DNA from: a virus
Lineage: Duplodnaviria; Caudoviricetes
IMG/VR virus record: IMGVR_UViG_3300033493_000005
Coordinates: 1-40,117 of that record
Strand: one strand, 5' to 3'
Length of the DNA: 40,117 bases
Made by a program: the position numbers and the translations under genes. The notes below the pieces were generated by a model. It was not told the DNA's origin. It did no database searches and saw nothing but the letters and a program-made list of their open reading frames with translations. The stretch's first letter is position 1. The number at the start of each line of letters is the position of its first letter. Of this stretch, positions 16,186 to 38,075 are shown piece by piece.

Positions 16186-16252
16186 ACCCCGACCGCTCCG
16201 CACCCGAAAGGGCCGGGGCTTTCGGGGTGTCAGTAGAGAGGAAATCACAATG
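16186..16252 (+). repeat. Hairpin+RBS intergenic cassette
   Basis: 16215-16252 is 37/38 identical to 16779-16816; ACCCCGA/TCGGGGT and GCTCCG/CGGGGC stems with a GAAA loop. Confidence 0.8.
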
Positions 16253-16444
16253 GCAAAACTAGACGCCTCCGATTTTTGCACGCTCGAGACCATGCCGGAT
16301 TGTCACCGTGCGTCGCATCGCGCTGCCGGCAACTGGGGGATCTACCCGGTCAATGGTGCAGTCCGTGAGCGCATGCTCCGGAGCGAGGCCGAGGAAATCG
16401 TCGAGGCGGATGCAGACGGCTATGACCATATCGTCAATGACTAG
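16250..16444 (+). CDS. Hypothetical early protein
   Basis: Strong RBS from the cassette; 64 aa. Confidence 0.65.
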   Translation: MAKLDASDFCTLETMPDCHRASHRAAGNWGIYPVNGAVRERMLRSEAEEIVEADADGYDHIVND

Positions 16445-16749: not shown

Positions 16750-16816
16750 ACACCCCCGCCCCTCCGACTCCGGTCCGAGGGGCTTTCGGGGTGTCAGCAG
16801 AGAGGAAATCACAATG
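16750..16816 (+). repeat. Hairpin+RBS intergenic cassette
   Basis: ACACCCC/GGGGTGT and GCCCCTC/GAGGGGC stems, then GAGAGGAAATCACAATG. Confidence 0.8.
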
Positions 16817-17005
16817 AAAGAATTACTGGACGCGTGCAGTCGGCTACGCGCAGCACGGTCAGGAATCGACGAAGCGTCATATCTAGTCGACCATATAGAC
16901 TTCCCTCGAGAGTACGCGTTGATCATCGCCGCGGCGGACGCGGTGAACGCGGCTCACAACGCAATCGTTATGCGTTGCACGCTAAGTGGCCCGACTCGAC
17001 ATTAG
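16814..17005 (+). CDS. Hypothetical early protein
   Basis: Cassette RBS defines ATG 16814; helical, 63 aa. Confidence 0.6.
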   Translation: MKELLDACSRLRAARSGIDEASYLVDHIDFPREYALIIAAADAVNAAHNAIVMRCTLSGPTRH

Positions 17006-20014: not shown

Positions 20015-20140
20015 CTTCGGGGAACCAGCTTGACGTTGGCGCCAGCCTCTCGGCGCTTGCTATCAAAGTCCCGATAGCGTCCCCTCGTACGGAAGTCGTG
20101 AGCCGTGCGAGGGGAAACGGCGGGGCGATTAGGAATAGAT

Positions 20141-20650
20141 ATGATTCAAATAACAAGAAAACTGCTGCGCGAGTGGCAAGCCTGCTACTCGAATGAGAAA
20201 CTGGACGCTACGGTACCAGGATCCGGGTTGACGCCTCTGCAAATACTGGATCTCAATATCCCTGCAGAAGACCGGATGTGGGTGGTGCTGCGAGAACCAG
20301 TGATCCCGGCGTGCGAGTTGCGCCTACTCGCGTGCAAATGGGCCCGCGAGGCTCTAGTTGTTGTCGGCAATCCAGATCCGCGATCTGTTGCTGCCGTCGA
20401 TTGCGCGGAGCGATTTGCTAGAGGAGAATCAACGACGGAAGAACTGGCCGCAGCCTGGTCCGCAGCCAGGGCCGCAGCCTGGTCCGCAGCCGGGTTCGCG
20501 GCCTGGTCCGCAGCCGGGGCCGCAGCCAGGGACGCAGCCGGGGCCGCAGCCAGGGACGCAGCCGGGGCCGCAGTCAGGGCCGCAGCCGGGGCCGCAGCCA
20601 GGGCCGCACAGATCGAGGACTGCAAATCTGTAATCGAGAATCTATCATGA
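20141..20650 (+). CDS. Conserved phage protein with Ala-rich AAxx tetrapeptide repeats
   Basis: LRLLAC..A...L....DPRS..A...A.RFA.GE....EL.AA followed by repeats; AGGA RBS. Confidence 0.7.
   Translation: MIQITRKLLREWQACYSNEKLDATVPGSGLTPLQILDLNIPAEDRMWVVLREPVIPACELRLLACKWAREALVVVGNPDPRSVAAVDCAERFARGESTTEELAAAWSAARAAAWSAAGFAAWSAAGAAARDAAGAAARDAAGAAVRAAAGAAARAAQIEDCKSVIENLS
20447..20608 (+). repeat. 12-bp coding tandem repeat (about 13 units, GCCGCAGCCNGG-like)
   Basis: Directly visible; encodes AAWS/AARA/AAGA/AARD. Confidence 0.85.
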
Positions 20651-27669: not shown

Positions 27670-29882
27670 CATTACTGTCGCCATCCGCTGCAACTCCCAT
27701 CATGGTCACTTTCGCTCTCGAATACGCGCGTCGCGGATGGTACGTATTCCCGCTGCATTCGGTGAACCCGGATACCAAGCGGTGTACATGCGGAGATCAA
27801 AAGTGCGAGCGAACGGCAAAGCATCCGCGAACGAAACATGGAGTAGACGATGCAACGATTGACGCGACGAAAATCAGTAAGTGGTGGAAGACCTGGCCAA
27901 ACGCAAACATCGGACTCGCGTGCGGCAAGTCCGGGGTTGTGGTCGTTGACGTGGATCCGCGCAATGGCGGCGATGAAACATTTCAAGAATTGGAAAAAGC
28001 CAACGGTAACCTGCCTAGGACTCCGATGCAGCTCACCGGGGGAGGAGGCGTTCATTACTTACTTAGACGACCCATCTCAAGTGATACCTTTCGAGGTCGC
28101 AAACTCCCCGGCGGAATCGATATCAAAGCAGACGGAGGATACATCGTACTGGCACCATCATCTCATGCGTCCGGGACTCCCTATCGCTGGGACGCCGGAC
28201 GCCACCCCGATGACGAGCCAATCGCCAATATCCCAGAGCGATGGCTTTCAATACTAGTTGTCCCCGCTGGTGGTGAGCAATCTGAAATACTGCCTGAGGA
28301 TGGCCTACTAGGCGCAGCATTCAAGGCGGCAGGGTGGGCAGGGCAATCGATAACGCTCGGTCGACTCAAGGTCCAATGCCCGTGGGAATCGGAGCACACT
28401 TCGGGCAATCGATTCGACGGCTCGACGGTGGTGTTCGCCCCGAACGAAGGCAAAACGACCGGGCACTTTCACTGTGCGCACTCTCATTGTTCGAACCGAA
28501 CGCTCAAAGACGTGCTCACAATCCTTCCGCCCAAGGCTCTCGCGGAAGCCAGGTCCCATTGCAAGCTCCCCGTCAACCACCAGCCGCCGCCCGAGACCGA
28601 GCCGTCGCCGGACACCGGGGAACCTTGGACAGAATCGCTCCATTTGACGTCTGAAGGGAACCTGACGAAGGCCCCGGGCAATGCCGCCCTACTGCTCGCG
28701 AACCTGCCAGATTGGCGCGGAGCCGTCCGTTACGACTCGTTTGCGGACCGGATCCGATGGTGCCGTCCAGCCCCAACGCTCGAGGGGATGCGGGGACCGG
28801 TGATTGGAGAGTGCCTAGCAGAGCACCATGTGACCTATGCGCAAGCCTGGCTGGCGCGGCACAGGCGCGTCGTTTTCTCGGACCAGGCTGTACGTCAGGG
28901 TCTAGAATCAGCGGCCCGCAAATACGCCTACAACCCGCTCCAGGACTACTTGCGGACGTTGCAATGGGACGGAACCAAGCGGATTGATCGGTGGCTCGCT
29001 ACCTACATTGGGGCCGAAGATAACGAGACCAACCGAATCATCGGTAGGTGGTGGTTGATCTCGGCCGTGGCCAGGGCAATGGAGCCGGGCTGCAAGGTGG
29101 ACCACGTTCTAGTCCTCAAGGGCAGTCAAGGGATGAAAAAATCCAGTGCTTTCATTGCATTAGCTGGCGCAGTGTGGGGGTTAGAATCGGTTCCATCGTT
29201 ACGGGACAAGGATGCAATGCAAACACTTAGGGGTAAGTGGATTGCGATCTTCAGTGAGCTAGAGACGATTCGAGGGGCCGCGCTAACCCTGGTGAAGGAC
29301 TACATTACCCGGCAAAACGATACGTTTCGAAAGTCATACGGGCGCGAACCGATTGATGTTCCCCGGGGCTGCGTGTTCGGAGCAACCGCCAATGAGCTCT
29401 ATTGTCTTCCGCAGGATGAAGAGAATCGCCGATGGTGGGCGGTTGCGGTTGGCTTCGTTTTGACTGAGGAAATCGAAAGGGACCGTGACCAACTGTGGGC
29501 TGAAGCATATCACGAGTGGGCTAACGGTGAGCGATGGTGGCCAGAAACCGCCGAGCATATCGAGCTCTTGAAGGAAGCCCAGCGAGAATCTACTGAAGAA
29601 GACGATTGGTTATCTCCGATTACCCGCTGGCTCTCGGAGATATGTGACGACCAGCGCGAGAACGGGGTAAGCACTCGGGAGGTCGCGCACCGGGCAATCT
29701 TGATTCCGTTCGACCGTATCTCGCGGTCCGACAATACCCGAATCGGTCGCATCCTGAGGTCGCTCGGATACGAGCCGCGGCAGCTGAGAGCGTCGGGCGT
29801 TAGGGAGCGCAGGTACTTTCCGAACGTCACTACTGTCACAATGCGTCCCAACCAAAAACCGGATACATGTGACGAATCGTAA
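27666..29882 (+). CDS. Prim-Pol primase/polymerase fused to VapE-like P-loop helicase
   Basis: GWYVFPL, KHP, ANIG, VVVDVD, TGGGGVH, APSSH; C-terminal PGCKVDHVLVLKGSQGMKKS, GATAN, ENRRWW. Confidence 0.9.
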   Translation: MTLLSPSAATPIMVTFALEYARRGWYVFPLHSVNPDTKRCTCGDQKCERTAKHPRTKHGVDDATIDATKISKWWKTWPNANIGLACGKSGVVVVDVDPRNGGDETFQELEKANGNLPRTPMQLTGGGGVHYLLRRPISSDTFRGRKLPGGIDIKADGGYIVLAPSSHASGTPYRWDAGRHPDDEPIANIPERWLSILVVPAGGEQSEILPEDGLLGAAFKAAGWAGQSITLGRLKVQCPWESEHTSGNRFDGSTVVFAPNEGKTTGHFHCAHSHCSNRTLKDVLTILPPKALAEARSHCKLPVNHQPPPETEPSPDTGEPWTESLHLTSEGNLTKAPGNAALLLANLPDWRGAVRYDSFADRIRWCRPAPTLEGMRGPVIGECLAEHHVTYAQAWLARHRRVVFSDQAVRQGLESAARKYAYNPLQDYLRTLQWDGTKRIDRWLATYIGAEDNETNRIIGRWWLISAVARAMEPGCKVDHVLVLKGSQGMKKSSAFIALAGAVWGLESVPSLRDKDAMQTLRGKWIAIFSELETIRGAALTLVKDYITRQNDTFRKSYGREPIDVPRGCVFGATANELYCLPQDEENRRWWAVAVGFVLTEEIERDRDQLWAEAYHEWANGERWWPETAEHIELLKEAQRESTEEDDWLSPITRWLSEICDDQRENGVSTREVAHRAILIPFDRISRSDNTRIGRILRSLGYEPRQLRASGVRERRYFPNVTTVTMRPNQKPDTCDES

Positions 29883-30030
29883 ACCATTGAATTTACTTAT
29901 CTTATGTTCTGCTGTCACTACTGTCACAACCTATATGAGTATAGAGATATATATGATAGTAGTACTAGGAGCACGTACCCATTTTGGGAACTCCTAGGAA
30001 ATCGGTTGTGTCAATGTGACATTGTGACGG
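29826..30030. other. Putative replication origin: convergent GTCAC/GTGAC iterons around an AT-rich core
   Basis: GTCACTACTGTCACAA at 29826 and 29914, AT-rich 29932-29965, inverted TGTGACATTGTGAC at about 30015-30028. Confidence 0.6.
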
Positions 30031-30558: not shown

Positions 30559-30567
30559 TCTAAGGGT

Positions 30568-30591
30568 GGGGCCCGGGTAATTCTGGGCCCC
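30568..30591 (+). terminator. GC-rich hairpin after 30558
   Basis: GGGGCCCGGG-TAAT-TCTGGGCCCC; no clear U-tract. Confidence 0.45.
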
Positions 30592-30601
30592 GCAATTACC
30601 A

Positions 30602-30781
30602 ATGGCAATTCGAGACGATATCGAAAAGTGCTTGGTTATTACCAGAATGTACCACCCAGATGGATATTTCTTGAGTCAAGAGGACTCCGATGAAATCAGG
30701 AGATATCGCGACCCTAAGGCCCCATTGGTATCTGGATTGTCCGATCATGTATTGGTCCAGATGGGAATCAAAACCGAATGA
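30602..30781 (+). CDS. Hypothetical 59-aa protein (absent from the ORF track)
   Basis: Hand-translated MAIRDDIEKC...MGIKTE; ATGA overlap with 30778. Confidence 0.5.
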   Translation: MAIRDDIEKCLVITRMYHPDGYFLSQEDSDEIRRYRDPKAPLVSGLSDHVLVQMGIKTE

Positions 30782-30978
30782 ACAACTCACAATTAGCCTT
30801 CGAACTACTGAGAATTCACCTGGGAAAACATGACGTTCCGCCAGATGTTGAAAGCCTTAGGTCAGCTATTGATTCGGGGCTTGTTGTGTGTAACGGGATG
30901 CTGCCATCGCTTACCTACGCTGGAATTGCGGCTATAGACAGAATCACTGTGGGATTGAATGAGACGGTGGTATCATGA
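30778..30978 (+). CDS. Hypothetical protein
   Basis: ATGA-coupled chain. Confidence 0.5.
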   Translation: MNNSQLAFELLRIHLGKHDVPPDVESLRSAIDSGLVVCNGMLPSLTYAGIAAIDRITVGLNETVVS

Positions 30979-31067
30979 GGACGCGAGTTACAGAAATCCA
31001 ATGGCACATTCGATTGCGTATAATGGTTGGTGGGTGGCTGATCGAGTTGGGGGAAAGGATTTACTGA
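30975..31067 (+). CDS. Hypothetical 30-aa protein
   Basis: ATGA start overlap and TGATG stop overlap link the flanking ORFs. Confidence 0.35.
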   Translation: MRTRVTEIQWHIRLRIMVGGWLIELGERIY

Positions 31068-31288
31068 TGAACCCACGGCAACGACGGATAATTATCGCTA
31101 GAGTGCTGGATCCGAAATATGAGCATCCAAAATCGATGCGGTGGGAGATCAGAGTCAAGCGCATTTATAAGCGAATCTATCCCGATGGAATCGAGGCGCT
31201 GGTACTTAGTCCAAGTCCGATATTGGGGTTGGTGAAACGTGACAATCCTGGCGACTTATTGTTTTTGAGAGGCGATTATGGTGGCTAG
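31067..31288 (+). CDS. Small protein containing a copy of the major capsid N-terminal segment
   Basis: AAGGA RBS; IYKRIYPDGIEALVLSPSPILGLVKRD versus MCP IYNRLYPDGIESLILGTSPTLGLVGKD. Confidence 0.7.
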   Translation: MNPRQRRIIIARVLDPKYEHPKSMRWEIRVKRIYKRIYPDGIEALVLSPSPILGLVKRDNPGDLLFLRGDYGG

Positions 31289-31877
31289 AGACGCCCAAAC
31301 CACTACTCCCTCGCGCCCGCGAGCTCGATCAATAGAGATTGATGCCGTGGCTTCCCCAGCTCACGTATGGGAGGTAGTAATCCCTCCTTATGCAGCATCG
31401 AAACCGAAGTCGCGCGGTGATGCTGTCAAAGCAATCGCCAGAATGATGGCAGAGGGCGAATGGCGCACCGGGGTTTCGGCGCGGCTGCTTTCTCCCCGCT
31501 GGAAGATGACGGTTGGAAGCATCCAGAACGTGTCGGCGGAAGCGTCTAGGATGGTCAAGTGCGTCGTCGACCCTAGTCTGCTGCTTCGCACGGTGTCAGA
31601 GTCAATCGAACGACTCATGGAGAACGGTTACGCCGCTCGCGAAGACGACAACATCAACGGGTCTACCGTTGCATTTACCAAAGCCGCTGAGCTTTGCCTC
31701 ACGCTCGCAAAGGACGCAAACCCATCAGACGATCGCTCGCAAGAGGATGTTCACCGGGCACTTGTTGCCGCTGGTTGGACCCCGCCGCCAACATTACTCG
31801 GACTGCCAGCGCCGTCTGTGATGCTACCGGCAGAACGCACTGCGAAGGAAGCAAATGATGACGACGACGATACCTAG
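31278..31877 (+). CDS. Putative terminase small subunit
   Basis: Position near terL; HTH-like then helical region; inference only. Confidence 0.4.
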   Translation: MVARDAQTTTPSRPRARSIEIDAVASPAHVWEVVIPPYAASKPKSRGDAVKAIARMMAEGEWRTGVSARLLSPRWKMTVGSIQNVSAEASRMVKCVVDPSLLLRTVSESIERLMENGYAAREDDNINGSTVAFTKAAELCLTLAKDANPSDDRSQEDVHRALVAAGWTPPPTLLGLPAPSVMLPAERTAKEANDDDDDT

Positions 31878-31976: not shown

Positions 31977-32306
31977 ATGAAGACTTTCAAAGCAATTTCG
32001 GTAAGGTTGTCTGAATGCATTCATGGCGACGGAGCCCGGACATACGAGCGAGGAAAGGTTGGGGTCCTGCTTGTAATCCCGGAATCAAAGCAAGCTATTG
32101 TGTCGATGAAAAACGGGCGTGCTTTCGTCGCTGGCTATGAGAGTGCTGAGCTTGCCGAAGGTGAACTCGACAGATTGCTCGAAGTACCATGGTGCGATAA
32201 GTGCGGACAGACGTTCGAGACTGGGCAAGCGCTTGGATCGCACAAGGCGTTCGTGCATGCTGCGGAGAAAATCAATCCTCTGCAGGCGAAGCCGATCAAG
32301 CGCTAG
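31977..32306 (+). CDS. Protein with C-terminal C2H2 zinc finger
   Basis: CDKCGQTFETGQALGSHKAFVH; GAGGA RBS before ATG 31977. Confidence 0.65.
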   Translation: MKTFKAISVRLSECIHGDGARTYERGKVGVLLVIPESKQAIVSMKNGRAFVAGYESAELAEGELDRLLEVPWCDKCGQTFETGQALGSHKAFVHAAEKINPLQAKPIKR

Positions 32307-33751
32307 CGATACCATTCAGGCAATCGCATCCCGAGCTTATTCGACTGCCTTAGGTTCTGGTTCCTCGCCGTGACCAACTTCAGCTCAATGTCATCCATTC
32401 CGGCGATCGTTTCGTCTTTGGACTCGTGCGAATAGTGGTGAGCCCTGCGCCAGTCGTATAGCCACGCGTCGCACGAGTGGTTTCGCATGCCGGGCTTTTC
32501 TTCTTTCTGTTGCGCATCCTTCCAGAGCAATGCTTTCGATTGCTCGTCAAGCGTGTCGCATGCTCCGTCAACGATGACAGCCATTCCGTTTGCGTAAGCG
32601 CCGTCAAGCAGCTTGATATAGCCGGCTTTATCGTTCTTTTCTGCGTTGATGATCGGAATTTGAAACCACTTGCGCATTTCGTTTAGATATCCCTTGCCCA
32701 ACGCTCCGTGGTCACCGACGATGAATTCGTAATGGTCGCGAGAGTCTAGTAGCTTTATCTGGTTTGCGAGGTCTCGCGGAGTATCGAGTCCGGTTGGTTC
32801 ACTTGTCCATTCGCAGAATGTTTCTGGCAAGTCAGGGCACCAAGCGGCACAGGCTAACGCACAGTTGTTCGACGCTCCGATGTCGACTGATAGACCGCGC
32901 GACCATTGGTGTCCTTCTGGCAACCGCGGAACGCGTCTCGCTTTCTCATAGTTCGGGTAGCATCGGCCGTCGGTGTCTTGGATCCAGATGCCATCCTCCC
33001 ATTGCATGCGAGTGATCGGTGGCAGCTCAGCAAGCGATCGTTGGTACTCTTCCCAGATACATCCCGGATTGTCTTTGGGATGCGCAGGGAAGAAAACTCG
33101 GTAGTCACCTTCAGCGGTATCAATGAACTTCGCTGGCGAGCCCTCAGGAAAGCGATCGGTTTCCTCGATGCCATAGCGCTTGCGAAGAAAGTCATGCGCT
33201 GGTCCACCGGGGTTAGTTCCGATGCGAAAACGAAGCGGCAACGACTTTGGGAAGTCTCGAGTTCTTCGAAGTCGTCCGAACATTTTGCGAATGTGATCGG
33301 GCTCGAATTCGGAGCCCTCCTCGATTGCAATGTACTGAAACTCACTCGACTTGTATTGACCGAAATCATCATCGCAATCGAAGTAGCCAAAGCAGATCGA
33401 TGCTCCGCTAGGAAAAACGAACGAGGAACTCTCGTCGTGCCATCGAGCTGGAGAATTCAAGAACCATGAGCGAGCACGATGCAGCAGAGCCCCAGGCTTC
33501 GTGAGTTCCTTATATGTGCGCCGTAGAATCAGTGCGGAGTACGTCGGAACCGATATCCCTTGGAGCGCTCCCATTAGCAAGACGTCGGACTTGCCGCAGT
33601 TCGCGCGGCCGCCGTACATCGCCTCAAGGACTCCAAGCGAAAGAAATTCGCGCTGCCTAGGTGATGGAGTATGCGGGCAATATAGGGACAATTTCTCGTT
33701 GCTGGCACCTGAGGGTAGCCTTAGGGTTTTGCTTTTCATGGATTGGTTCAT
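32303..33751 (-). CDS. terL: Terminase large subunit
   Basis: PSPRQ, YGGRANCGKS (Walker A), ILRRT, IAIEE (Walker B), GTNPGG, SVDIG and NHSCDAWLY nuclease motifs. Confidence 0.88.
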   Translation of the reverse strand: MNQSMKSKTLRLPSGASNEKLSLYCPHTPSPRQREFLSLGVLEAMYGGRANCGKSDVLLMGALQGISVPTYSALILRRTYKELTKPGALLHRARSWFLNSPARWHDESSSFVFPSGASICFGYFDCDDDFGQYKSSEFQYIAIEEGSEFEPDHIRKMFGRLRRTRDFPKSLPLRFRIGTNPGGPAHDFLRKRYGIEETDRFPEGSPAKFIDTAEGDYRVFFPAHPKDNPGCIWEEYQRSLAELPPITRMQWEDGIWIQDTDGRCYPNYEKARRVPRLPEGHQWSRGLSVDIGASNNCALACAAWCPDLPETFCEWTSEPTGLDTPRDLANQIKLLDSRDHYEFIVGDHGALGKGYLNEMRKWFQIPIINAEKNDKAGYIKLLDGAYANGMAVIVDGACDTLDEQSKALLWKDAQQKEEKPGMRNHSCDAWLYDWRRAHHYSHESKDETIAGMDDIELKLVTARNQNLRQSNKLGMRLPEWYR

Positions 33752-34018: not shown

Positions 34019-35931
34019 TTCTAGATACCGTATGGCACGAGGATGCTGAGGCTCGCGAGACTTCGGATGAATTTCTAAAGTGCTTTGATGCGTTGAAAGA
34101 ACAGCAGTCACTGCGTGTTCAGTTCGATCGGTTCTGGTGCTCGCTCTATTACGATCGGGCTTACCAGGGTTTCTGTGATGGTCGCGACTGGGGTGACATC
34201 TTCACCGAACTGCTGGAGCCCAATTCTGGGCGACTCAACGAGAACGTAATTCTCCGAATCGTCGCTACGCTCGCAGCTCGATTTGCAAAGCAGAAGTCAA
34301 AGCCGCAGTGCCTAACGACGCTCGGCGACTGGGCCCTGCAACGGCGTGCTGATCGTTACTCGAGACTATTCGAAGGTGCGATGCACGAGATAAAAGTTTA
34401 CGAGCTGCAACGCCAGTCAGACCTGACTGACATCATTTGTGGAACCGGAGCAATCTACTGCACGAGCCGCAAGTCTAAGCTCATAGGTCAAGCGGTTCCA
34501 TGTTGGGAGCTTTATACCGAGATTGCCGACTCGCGCCGGATGATCCCGAATCGAATCTATTGGCGACGCATTCTTGGGCGTCGTCGATTGATGAAGCTAT
34601 ATCCGGAGCGCGCCAAAGAAATAGAAGGTGCACAGTCGGTAGAGACTCGGGAGGCCTTCGATGCATTCGGGGCTTATGATGTCGACGTCGTTGAAGTCGT
34701 GACCGGTTGGAGTTTGCCGACTGACGAGGACTCTGATGACGGTCGAGTAATGACCGCTATTCGCGGAGTAGTTCTCGACGATGCAGAGTGGAATCGTCCT
34801 AGGCTTCCTTTTGCTTTTTCTCGCTACATGCTCCCGCCTGACGGCATGTGGGGGATCGGTGTTGTTTCCGGTTTAGTTGGCGCGCAAGCGGAGCTCAACC
34901 GGAGCCTGGCTAATCGGCAGACTGCGCTTGAAATGTGCTCCGCCCCGTTCATCGCGGTTGAGCGTGGATCGCAAATCGTCGACTCACACATGAGCGACCA
35001 GATCGGTCGTATCGTCGAGTATACGGGAACGATGCCCAGTGTGGTTGCCCCCGGTACTCTGCATCCCGAACAGATGCAGCATACTGACCGTGTACGTGGC
35101 TCAATGTTCTCAGCTTCGGGGCTGTCGGAGCTCGCTGCTACTTCTCTCAAGCCGGCGGGGCTCGACTCTGGTAAAGCCCTGCGCGTTTACGCTGACATGA
35201 TGGACGATGCATTTCACGACGCGATGCTCCGTCGTGATCAGCAGATTCTAGATCTTGCTGAAATCATTCTCGACGAAATCGAATCGATCGCAGAAGACAC
35301 CGGCAGCTACAAGACTAAGTACGTCGGGCCGTTTGGGATCGAGAAGATCGAATATTCAGACATCTGCATCGATCGCGACTCGATGTACCTCAAGGTACTT
35401 TCAACATCTTCGCTTTCATCGACGATTGCCGGTCGTTTAGAAGACGTGGTGAGTATGCAAGAGGCAGGCGTTGAGCTGTCACCAGACGAACGCGAACACT
35501 TGCTGAACATTCCGGATTTGAGCGAGTCAAGCGAACGACGCAACTCGATGCCTAATTTGCTGCGCCAGCTCGTCGAAGAAGAAATGCTCGGCGAGGGCAA
35601 ATGGACAACCCCCGAGCCCCGGTGGAATTTGCAGAAGGCACTAGATATCGTCTCGCAAACGATTCTCATGGCCCAGATTCGGAAGGCGCCAGCTGATAGA
35701 ATCGATATGTTGCGCAAGTTTGAAGTCGAGTGCATGCGGCTTGACGCGCTGGCAAAGTCTGCGGTCTCCGTCTCTCAGCCACCACCAGAACCACAGGCAG
35801 CAGCAATGCCGCCAGCAGTGGCCCCAGAAATGGGTCCAGAACAAGCGCCTGTCCCAGTGGAGGGACAGAGCCCCATCGTAGGCGGGGAACAGCTTACAGG
35901 GCCCGATATGGGCCAGGGAATGATGCAATGA
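34015..35931 (+). CDS. Portal protein
   Basis: 638 aa; ..RLPF.F......GMWGIG....L...Q.ELN, SGKA pattern; synteny before scaffold and capsid. Confidence 0.8.
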   Translation: MILDTVWHEDAEARETSDEFLKCFDALKEQQSLRVQFDRFWCSLYYDRAYQGFCDGRDWGDIFTELLEPNSGRLNENVILRIVATLAARFAKQKSKPQCLTTLGDWALQRRADRYSRLFEGAMHEIKVYELQRQSDLTDIICGTGAIYCTSRKSKLIGQAVPCWELYTEIADSRRMIPNRIYWRRILGRRRLMKLYPERAKEIEGAQSVETREAFDAFGAYDVDVVEVVTGWSLPTDEDSDDGRVMTAIRGVVLDDAEWNRPRLPFAFSRYMLPPDGMWGIGVVSGLVGAQAELNRSLANRQTALEMCSAPFIAVERGSQIVDSHMSDQIGRIVEYTGTMPSVVAPGTLHPEQMQHTDRVRGSMFSASGLSELAATSLKPAGLDSGKALRVYADMMDDAFHDAMLRRDQQILDLAEIILDEIESIAEDTGSYKTKYVGPFGIEKIEYSDICIDRDSMYLKVLSTSSLSSTIAGRLEDVVSMQEAGVELSPDEREHLLNIPDLSESSERRNSMPNLLRQLVEEEMLGEGKWTTPEPRWNLQKALDIVSQTILMAQIRKAPADRIDMLRKFEVECMRLDALAKSAVSVSQPPPEPQAAAMPPAVAPEMGPEQAPVPVEGQSPIVGGEQLTGPDMGQGMMQ

Positions 35932-36800
35932 GCGAAATCGCAACCACTGGAAATACAGTTGAAGCAGTAGACGGCGAAAGTGCCGCGATTGAATTCGCAC
36001 AGGGTGAGCAAGAGACGGAGACCCCGGCAGTAGAAGAAAAGAAACCGGAGCCCGTCGTTGAGACTAAAACACCCGAGACGATTCTTGCGGAAGCTGCGGC
36101 AGAAAAGAAAGCCGCTTCCGAGCGGCTCGAGAAGGTGAATTCGCAGATTGCGTCGTTCGAGCGACAGAAGTCCAAGTTCGCTGAGCGTGAAGCGCGTCTC
36201 ATCGAACGTGAGAAGGCAGTGGAATCACTTTCATCGGTGTCTGACATTACCGCGCACTTGGCCAAGCTGCGCGGGGTCACTGCTGATGAAATCTGGCAAG
36301 AGTGGGCTGAGGAGATCAAGGGCGGCGGTAAGCCTTCCGAAGCTACGATTGCCAAGCGGGAGCGCGACAAGTTGCGTCGCGAACTCGAAGAGTCGAAGGA
36401 ACTCGCAACCAAGCGCGAGCAGGAACAATCGCAGGCAGTTGTCAGTCAATGGGGAACTGAGATGGATGGCATTCTGGCAGCAGAAACATTCAAGACCTCA
36501 TACCCTCGACTGGCAGCGATCCCTAGCGTGATTCTCGTTGACGCTTTGGTTTCGAAGACGAAAGAATTTCAAGCAGAACATTCCGGTAAGCTGCCTCAGC
36601 ACGCCGATTTACTCGCGTGGCTGGAGTCGCAGTGTCCCGAGGCCGAGCCGCCAAAGCCGGTAGTTACAACGACTGAAGCGAAAGCTAAAACCAAACCACG
36701 GATCCCCAACGATAGTGACGCTTCCGCGTCCATCGGTGCGCGGAACCTATCGGAAGCAGAACGAGAAGAGCTGGCAATCGAATACGCAAGCTCTCTCTAA
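35928..36800 (+). CDS. Capsid scaffolding protein
   Basis: Acidic, highly helical; between portal and MCP. Confidence 0.65.
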   Translation: MSEIATTGNTVEAVDGESAAIEFAQGEQETETPAVEEKKPEPVVETKTPETILAEAAAEKKAASERLEKVNSQIASFERQKSKFAEREARLIEREKAVESLSSVSDITAHLAKLRGVTADEIWQEWAEEIKGGGKPSEATIAKRERDKLRRELEESKELATKREQEQSQAVVSQWGTEMDGILAAETFKTSYPRLAAIPSVILVDALVSKTKEFQAEHSGKLPQHADLLAWLESQCPEAEPPKPVVTTTEAKAKTKPRIPNDSDASASIGARNLSEAEREELAIEYASSL

Positions 36801-36809
36801 GGAGAAGTC

Positions 36810-38075
36810 ATGGCGGAACTCAATCTAACTACCGTTGCGGGCATCTACAATCGGCTGTACCCGGACGGAATCGAATCACTCATCCTTGGCACCAGTCCAA
36901 CCCTTGGCCTGGTAGGCAAGGACATCAAAGTTTTTGACGGCCTAGGCGGCTCTGGTAAAGAGCTGCTGTGGGAAGTCAACGCCGGCACGGGCGCAAGCGG
37001 CTCTTACGCCGTTGCGTACGCGCAGCCTGGCAATGAGACGTTCGCGAAGCCCTTCGTGACTCGTGGACGCCTGTTTGCTACGCGTCAGCTCAGCCACGAA
37101 GCGTGGCGTGCTGCCAAGGGCAACGGTCGTGCGTTGACCGATTTGGTCAAGCAGGCAGTCAAGGGCGCTACTTACGAGCTCAAACATCGTGCGTCGAGCG
37201 TGTTGACTGGTGGGCTCGGTGGCTCTATCGGTCGTATCAGCGCAACGTCGAATGTTGGCACGGCCACTATCACGCTGAGCGATCCGAGCGAATGCGTCAA
37301 ATTCAAGCCGAATCAGCGACTGCAAGCATTTACCACGGTAGCTGGCGGCCCACTCAACGCCGGGGCTGTCGTTACGTTGACTGCCGCTGGCGTCAACTAT
37401 GACACTGGTCAATTGACGGCTACCGGAAACTGGTCAGCTGCCATCGGAGCGATTGCCGCATCTGACTATCTCATTCCTGAAGGTGACTTCGGAACCGTGC
37501 CAGTCGGCATGGATGCTTGGAATCCAACGACCCTGATTGCAGCGGGTGCCGGCGACAACTTCTTCGGGGTTGACCGTGGCGGATCGGTTCCGATGCAAGG
37601 GACGCGCATGGTCGTCACCGCCGGGACAATCGATGAAGCAATCGTGCAAGCGGCTGCTCGTCATTACTCAATTGGTGGTGTACACGACACCGCGCTTTGC
37701 AATCCTCTCGATTTCGCGACGATGAAGCAGGACCAGTTCTCGGTCATCGTCAAGAACGCGATTGGATCGAACAAGAAGGAGATTGCATCGGTGTCCTACA
37801 AGGGCCTTGAAATCCAAGGGCCTCAAGGACCAATCGCCGCGTTCGCCGATCCGTTCATCAAGCGCGGTCGCGTTCGGTTGACTCGCATTTCTTCGTGGAC
37901 CCTCTGGTCCCTCGGAGAGATGTTTGGTCGGATGACGGAGGGCATGGGAAGCGACGGCGTGCTTCGTCTCGCCGGGCAGGATGCGTCCTACATGGTGTTT
38001 GGCGGGTACGGAAACTTCGTTTGTGAACGTCCGCTAGACTCGATGATTATCACCCTGCCGAACGCGCCGGCATAA
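36810..38075 (+). CDS. Major capsid protein
   Basis: 421 aa; strong AAGGAG RBS; synteny; downstream hairpin. Confidence 0.75.
   Translation: MAELNLTTVAGIYNRLYPDGIESLILGTSPTLGLVGKDIKVFDGLGGSGKELLWEVNAGTGASGSYAVAYAQPGNETFAKPFVTRGRLFATRQLSHEAWRAAKGNGRALTDLVKQAVKGATYELKHRASSVLTGGLGGSIGRISATSNVGTATITLSDPSECVKFKPNQRLQAFTTVAGGPLNAGAVVTLTAAGVNYDTGQLTATGNWSAAIGAIAASDYLIPEGDFGTVPVGMDAWNPTTLIAAGAGDNFFGVDRGGSVPMQGTRMVVTAGTIDEAIVQAAARHYSIGGVHDTALCNPLDFATMKQDQFSVIVKNAIGSNKKEIASVSYKGLEIQGPQGPIAAFADPFIKRGRVRLTRISSWTLWSLGEMFGRMTEGMGSDGVLRLAGQDASYMVFGGYGNFVCERPLDSMIITLPNAPA

Follow-up and report, generated by a model that had tools for sequence, protein, structure and literature searches.

Locus

The window (the whole stretch of DNA analysed) is a phage record of 40,117 bp, complete and with direct repeats at its termini. 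Its plus strand carries replication genes, then a run of small open reading frames (ORFs) and a 199-aa putative small terminase, after which come the large terminase on the minus strand, the portal, the scaffold and a 421-aa capsid protein (Table 1). Of interest is a mini-gene at the end of the small-ORF run, part of which reproduces a segment of the phage's own capsid protein.

Table 1. Positions in the window of the mini-gene, its parts and the genes around it
Feature	Position	Strand	Remarks
30-aa upstream ORF	30975..31067	+	TGA overlaps mini-gene ATG; L001 and L026 have longer homologues
AAGGA, ribosome-binding-like site	31055..31059	+	recognised by sequence; 7 nt before ATG, inside the 30-aa upstream ORF
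73-aa mini-gene	31067..31288	+	net charge +7; unannotated family of 55-80 aa
Basic N-half, codons 1-32	31067..31162	+	conserved; helices predicted at 3-14 and 21-37, the latter reaching into the copy
Copy of capsid N-arm residues 12-38	31163..31243	+	from 31154 if V30 is counted
14-codon tail	31244..31288	+	this member only; holds GAGAGG (31267-31272) and the next gene's start
Putative small terminase, 199 aa	31278..31877	+	label from position only; start overlapped by mini-gene stop
Large terminase	32303..33751	-	phrog_979, E 7e-41; antisense to neighbours
Putative scaffolding protein	35928..36800	+	inferred from position and size; conserved acidic C-terminal motif
Major capsid protein, HK97 fold, 421 aa	36810..38075	+	source segment of the copy 36843-36923

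The first-pass annotation had placed the mini-gene among coupled mini-ORFs ahead of the packaging genes and given it a ribosome-binding site of its own. Both points hold: the gene overlaps its neighbours at either end, and purine-rich sites resembling the AAGGA precede the mini-gene in all five related loci. The AT-richer run that it also described is present in the window, where region 30559-31290 has a GC content of 0.477 against 0.56 and falls among the lowest 0.1% of 732-bp segments (the region having been chosen post hoc), but AT-richness is no trait of the mini-gene family, as the gene has a GC content of 0.51-0.57 in four relatives. Small ORFs upstream of the mini-gene vary among relatives by gain, loss and truncation (window 30559-31067; L001:1714-2222; L026:618-824; L027:562-753), which marks the stretch from replication to packaging genes as a variable slot. 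A scan for promoters and terminators gave nothing useful near the mini-gene, and in RNA run X3 four short contigs fell on neighbouring genes at <95% likeness and none on the mini-gene.

The putative small terminase is kept before the large terminase gene (terL) in 11 loci, the window included, and has no family match in PHROGs, Pfam, NCBIfam or further searches. The inverted large terminase between it and the portal is also seen in nine related loci and is missing from three more distant ones (L018, L020 and L022). The portal is so labelled from its position and size, with a weak phrog_332 match. The C-termini of the putative scaffolds have invariant E, R and A residues in 10 of 10 cases, and the last 20 aa carry a net charge of -3. 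This acidic helix motif (36750-36797 in the window, and nine related loci) is opposite in charge to the basic tip of the P22 scaffold. The putative scaffold is a natural candidate partner of the capsid N-arm.

Other features of the record are an exact 16-bp direct repeat found by eye (29826-29841 and 29914-29929), with one copy at the primase gene's end and the other in the AT-rich gap that follows, a possible replication origin; a repeated stretch at about 16200-16260 and 16770-16820, detected as self-matches in several frames and ending in a ribosome-binding-like site and a start, possibly a repeated early promoter or leader; and a 181-aa protein (20105-20650) with an alanine-rich repeat tail, matching phrog_18326, whose function PHROGs lists as unknown. 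As to the host, GTDB genomes and cultured phages contained no relative of the capsid protein, and terL matches were all <50% and scattered over phyla.

Capsid protein and its N-arm

By its predicted model (pLDDT 82.5; helices 8-16, 22-26 and 30-34) the 421-aa protein is an HK97-fold capsid protein of the SU10 type, the best structural match in Foldseek being the SU10 capsid (E 1.3e-12) and the next HK97 (E 3e-8). The protein has no PHROG or Pfam match of its own and does not reach the PF17236 cut-off; PF17236 is present in seven of 57 capsid homologues, P0023 among those passing. The copied residues 12-38, or 9-38 with an extra valine, span the predicted helices ahead of the E-loop strands, i.e. 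the N-arm, a name that follows established HK97 topology and the description in PMC9965877. In the procapsids of 80alpha, P22 and phi29, the N-arm helix is described as the scaffold-binding site (for 80alpha, PMC5644958).

The copied segment

A recount agrees with the gap-free match first reported, 18 of 27 residues between codons 33-59 of the mini-gene and capsid residues 12-38; the match stretches to 19 of 30 when V30 is aligned with capsid V9. When 960 six-frame segments were compared with one another by blastp, it reached an E-value of 7e-9 and, the terminal repeat aside, was the only protein-level repeat of that strength. Thirteen of the 18 identical residues are written with other codons, as had been noted, and the DNA agrees at 48 of 81 positions (18, 24 and 6 of 27 at the three codon positions). 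Such poor agreement at third positions, with a pS of 0.94 and a pN of 0.23 to the phage's own capsid gene, sustains the original view of an old copy kept as protein rather than a recent DNA duplication.

Residues 30-59 are the sole part of the mini-protein that matches the capsid, and its model shows no full HK97 fold. The basic N-terminus had been called unrelated to the capsid, and so it appears, with 627 of 1000 and 876 of 1000 shuffles scoring as well; against the other window proteins, 90 of 300 and 111 of 500 shuffles do as well as the constant N-half. A likeness between residues 2-18 and terL residues 30-46 was rejected: only 2 of 500 shuffles equalled it in a hand-picked segment, as against 90 of 300 for the whole N-half and 373 of 500 for the L024 type. 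Also rejected was the tail, residues 60-73, as a copy of capsid motif 216-229 (6-96 of 1000 shuffles in four tests on the family profile; 337 of 500 and 167 of 300 on the window's own proteome); its end is fixed by the GAGAGG and start of the next gene, and it matches an endolysin in L002 as well. That unrelated endolysin (L002:10001-10063) has eight residues in common with the tail, which is taken as chance.

The model of the mini-protein predicts helices at 3-14 and 21-37, with pLDDT 76-82 over residues 1-40 and a pTM of 0.36. The remainder after helix 2 is of low confidence, and the part that corresponds to the loop and second helix of the arm has a pLDDT under 50. The predicted helix 21-37 runs directly into the copied capsid helix; mini-protein helix 21-38 has a charge of +6, and the first 17 residues of the capsid protein a charge of 0. 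Searches of PHROGs, Pfam, NCBIfam and PADLOC returned no match to the mini-protein. For its fold there was no BFVD match at E <= 0.001, the best PDB match had E 0.48, and the first match in the Atlas, at 0.90, was unnamed. When parts of the mini-protein were compared with the 49 window proteins, the scaffold was among the top matches of none of them. A co-fold of mini-protein residues 1-59 (5-row alignment) with the C-terminal 45 aa of the scaffold (10 rows) scored 0.01, against a mark of 0.32, and is given no weight for or against binding.

Distribution of the mini-gene family

Does the mini-gene have relatives? The first-pass annotation had proposed a search for homologous mini-ORFs, and they exist: a profile search limited to proteins of 30-140 aa gave 49 candidates, eight clusters of which belong to the family if that of the window is counted. 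A phmmer search over 1.84 billion representatives, with no length limit, gave five matches, of which three are real; among matches of any length there were no capsid proteins or fusions. Left out were P0062 and P0064 (repeat proteins, two of the five phmmer matches), L002 and L108 (chance matches, the latter off-frame) and L023, which is the window itself. DNA context was available for five other loci, L001, L024, L025, L026 and L027, with L024 and L025 near-identical. In all six loci the putative small terminase follows the mini-gene immediately, its start overlapped by the mini-gene stop. No member of the family turned up in any of five more distant phage records, four of which are 90% or more complete.

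The conserved part is not the 27-aa block, as had been supposed, but the basic N-half. All 10 invariant columns of the family lie in residues 1-29, and the N-half has a pN of 0.18-0.34 and a pS of 0.76-0.88 against four relatives. The capsid copy is strong in two of the eight clusters, weak in one and replaced or absent in five. In fixed register on the capsid profile, the C-halves of the window protein, of P0061, P0066 and P0067 and, weakly, of P0060 beat shuffled sequences (0 of 2000 each), whereas those of P0063, P0089, P0091, P0002 and L001 do not rise above them (175-461 of 2000). Identities to capsid residues 12-38 form a graded series of 18, 15, 8 and 2-4, and the hydrophobic helix pattern persists in members without the block.

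Close relatives, too, have lost the block. L001 is close to the window (terL 94%, portal 88%), yet has lost it. P0089 also lacks the block; its longest contig, of 38,960, equals that of capsid P0069, which has a nearly identical arm, and from this equality the two probably sit side by side on one contig. The replacement tails are themselves constrained (L001 against L026, pS 0.34 and pN 0.04 over 20 codons), and those of the five clusters match no phage protein compared. Further copies of the N-arm were found neither in 18 capsid loci nor in five of five whole records, and a motif scan of IMG/VR gave five matches, four capsid genes and one chance match.

Age and selection

The phage of L024 stands far from that of the window (putative small terminase about 50%, terL C-terminus 65%). 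Its block has 14 of 27 residues identical to the window's, at pS 0.77 and pN 0.37, a conservation on a par with that of the N-half and of the following gene. Both blocks lie a little closer to the window's capsid (18 identities for the window, 15 for L024) than to one another (14). In simulations of neutral drift to a third-position identity of at most 9 of 27, four identical residues remained on average, and 18 or more in 0 of 3000 runs. On a profile of 16 distant capsids the window block scores 56.0 bits and the phage's own capsid 64.2; nine random changes give 26.5 +/- 6.8 bits, and the observed fit was reached in 0 of 3000 runs, as it was for the blocks of P0066, P0061 and P0060. The tendency of changes to avoid conserved columns, a weaker test, is significant in one block of the four (permutation p 0.21 for the window; 0.03, 0.09 and 0.30 for the other three blocks). 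Taken together, the substitution patterns and simulations show the block to be preserved at the protein level in two lineages.

A neutral recombination scar was considered and rejected in view of the simulations, the saturated synonymous change and the low DNA identity, 35-48 of 81 nt, to all 10 capsid genes compared (donors outside those 10 being possible); the near-identity in DNA that the first-pass annotation had named as a sign of such a scar is thus missing. The register is the same and gap-free in all carriers. In a tree of 30 columns, short and unrooted, the four blocks separate from 20 capsid arms with 86% bootstrap, moderate support for a single old origin of the copy in the clade. 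All four blocks carry R in place of the invariant capsid K37, possibly shaped by the gene overlap, and three of the four have G33 changed. The N-half tree, likewise short and unrooted, places the L024 type as outlier and the window next, and groups six block-poor sequences at 74%. Among 58 capsids the window's own is the best match to its block (18 of 27; next 17 and 16), and at positions 14 and 25 the block carries the capsid family consensus and not the residue of its own capsid. From these comparisons, the simplest history would be one old partial duplication within the clade, which persisted in two lineages and elsewhere wore away or gave way to other sequence.

A possible second piece from the phage's own proteins

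P0002 carries a 25-aa insert (L026:980-1054, residues 54-78), flanked by a short direct repeat and absent from the close allele L001. The insert resembles residues 19-33 of the putative small terminase of the same contig, with 10 of 16 residues identical and eight of these 10 recoded. This is its best non-self match among 5538 segments (E 0.033), better than that to the window's orthologue, and against 50 proteins one of 300 shuffles was as good. The evidence for a terminase piece is moderate, as it comes from a single sequence and from one test among about 20 short ones. A likeness of the P0063 tail to the portal C-terminus (10 of 500 and 24 of 300 shuffles) was not accepted.

Possible roles

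What might a free copy of the N-arm do? The mini-protein most likely presents the arm to a partner that binds arms, since helix 2 is predicted to run into the copied helix and the N-arm helix is, in better-studied phages, the site bound by scaffold and by CpmB. The reading preferred here, tentatively, is that of a helical carrier with a swappable self-derived peptide, which would serve as an optional decoy for foreign N-arm binders. The mini-gene would be translated, linking the conserved basic N-half with a copy, under selection, of the phage's own arm, and helix 1 may prop the copied helix in a procapsid-like form (predicted helices only, in a model of low pTM). The C-half would act as a swappable payload, a term that holds for two pieces only, as in five clusters the tails that stand in for the block resemble no phage protein compared. 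The partner would be either a sensor of the host or a satellite protein that hijacks assembly, and the decoy would soak up a binder that otherwise seizes the arm on newly made capsid protein. Preference for the decoy comes from the constant carrier, the variable tail, the patchy presence and the second piece, taken from a protein relevant to satellites and defence. A foreign partner is favoured over the phage's own scaffold because the block is lost in close relatives, where a self-partner would predict its retention. The turnover of the block, replaced in five of eight clusters in a family absent from distant records, would be typical of conflict genes.

Satellite CpmB is described as binding capsid as scaffold does, at the N-arm helix (PMC5644958), and satellite Rpp as binding TerS (PMC6739421). 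CapRel-type sensing was brought up in the first-pass annotation, and it stands that several host systems are reported to sense capsid protein (Avs7/8/10, Dsr1, CapRel SJ46 and Thoeris), which gives a capsid decoy a reason to exist. The analogy is loose, however, as the contacts described lie on capsid surfaces other than the N-arm: the folded A/P domains and E-loop for Avs7, the E- and P-loops for Thoeris and, from escape mutations, residues 114-115 for CapRel. Further sources drawn on are 10.64898/2026.01.04.697583, PMC13728456, PMC11922011, PMC9712102, PMC12578639 and PMC9509320. Against the decoy, a faithful copy of the N-arm should also bind the phage's own scaffold, at a cost; an assembly role is equally in keeping with a gene that lies among the packaging genes and is coupled to the putative small terminase; and variable columns hold no significant excess of the changes in the window block (p 0.21). 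Coupling to the small terminase may keep protein copies few, which would suit a sensor that is itself scarce more than a satellite protein in plentiful supply.

Next in rank after the decoy comes a possible, if somewhat unlikely, role as an optional adaptor in head assembly or packaging, the copied arm docking on the phage's own scaffold at its C-terminal helix or on the arm's site in the capsid; in variants of this, the basic N-half is carried into the prohead like a targeting tag, or scaffold release is tuned. The use of the N-arm helix as scaffold-binding site in 80alpha, P22 and phi29 accords with such a role, as do the opposite charges of the acidic scaffold tip (-3) and of mini-protein helix 21-38 (+6), the stop-start overlap in six of six loci, the rank of the phage's own capsid as best match among 58 and the short capsid-targeting tag described for T4 internal proteins (PMC3012670). 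But the block is absent in five of eight clusters, P0089 with its probable nearly identical capsid neighbour included, the own capsid leads by one or two residues only, positions 14 and 25 follow the family consensus, and the blocks change the invariant K37 in four of four cases and G33 in three of four. The consensus at positions 14 and 25, and a fit to the clade-wide capsid profile, would suit a poison for co-infecting related phages, a free arm jamming their capsid assembly; this ranks last and is very improbable, for the closest target is the phage's own capsid and no immunity factor is evident. Nor is there an evident resident state to defend, as the 48 window proteins scanned in PHROGs include no integrase match.

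Between adaptor and poison in rank stands an old partial capsid duplication co-opted to provide helix 2 of a small protein whose job is unrelated, or to act as a coupling leader for the next gene, its likeness to the capsid decaying and functionless. The graded series of identities, the helix pattern that outlives the block and the confinement of invariant columns to the N-half all lean that way. This reading is nonetheless held to be quite unlikely: P18, G20, E22, P30 and L32, of the loop and second helix, are kept in two lineages whose synonymous sites are saturated, and the fit to the capsid profile is far above that of random change (0 of 3000). Folding alone does not explain these residues, since that part is not predicted to fold. 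Two other ideas were dropped. An arrest peptide, in which the block senses capsid or scaffold and controls the next gene, would in 59-aa members still have its block in the ribosome tunnel at the stop; and splicing or recombination between the two copies would involve terL, portal and scaffold, which lie between them.

A more general form of the decoy reading is that phages keep a carrier gene that swaps protein-selected copies of head proteins, the capsid N-arm and the small-terminase piece, as self-epitope decoys against satellites and host sensors. It is regarded as doubtful, and unlikely as a whole.

Comparison with known systems

On the strength of its sequence comparisons, the mini-gene belongs to a real, selected and undescribed small family with a self-derived copy of the capsid arm. 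The literature searched, mostly open full text, contained no capsid-fragment decoy and no phage gene that copies its own capsid N-arm. By position and predicted helices the copied element is the N-arm of HK97-fold capsids (P22 gp5, 80alpha, phi29; SU10 type, PF17236), but in the mini-protein it is free-standing, placed behind an unrelated basic helix and without capsid residues 1-8. A phage that keeps such a copy implies either a counter-measure or a step in building the head that is so far undescribed. Copies of this kind would flag, from sequence, the capsid and terminase surfaces that serve for docking or come under attack. Natural alleles that carry the block in full, in half or not at all, together with the capsid and scaffold genes, constitute a ready test set that needs no host.

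The T4 internal proteins with a capsid targeting sequence, as described in PMC3012670, are likewise small, have a constant and a variable part and are linked to counter-defence. In T4, however, the tag stays constant and the payload is what changes, whereas in the mini-protein the capsid-like part is C-terminal and variable. Ccm of SaPIbov5 (PMC8569155) is capsid-derived and acts on assembly, as the mini-protein may do in one of its readings, but is described as a satellite's capsid homologue, while only 27-30 residues of the mini-protein derive from the capsid.

A further likeness is to CpmB of SaPI1 (72 aa; PMC5644958) and Rcm of SaPIpT1028 (PMC12409344), small helical proteins, as the 73-aa mini-protein is predicted to be, which are reported to copy a short head-assembly motif and to compete at the interface of scaffold and N-arm. 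Mimicry at this interface is thus already known from satellites that parasitise phages. These are genes of satellites without head genes of their own, and they copy the scaffold side; the window is a complete phage with direct terminal repeats and its own terminase and capsid, and its mini-gene copies the capsid side of its own interface. Nor, in the comparison with 49 window proteins, does the mini-protein show the scaffold's C-terminal capsid-binding motif that CpmB and Rcm share. By analogy, it may work like a mirror image of their mimicry, yet by origin and motif it stands outside their class. If the more general form of the decoy reading is true, the mini-gene would be a self-epitope decoy cassette, the phage's own counterpart to satellite scaffold mimics such as CpmB.
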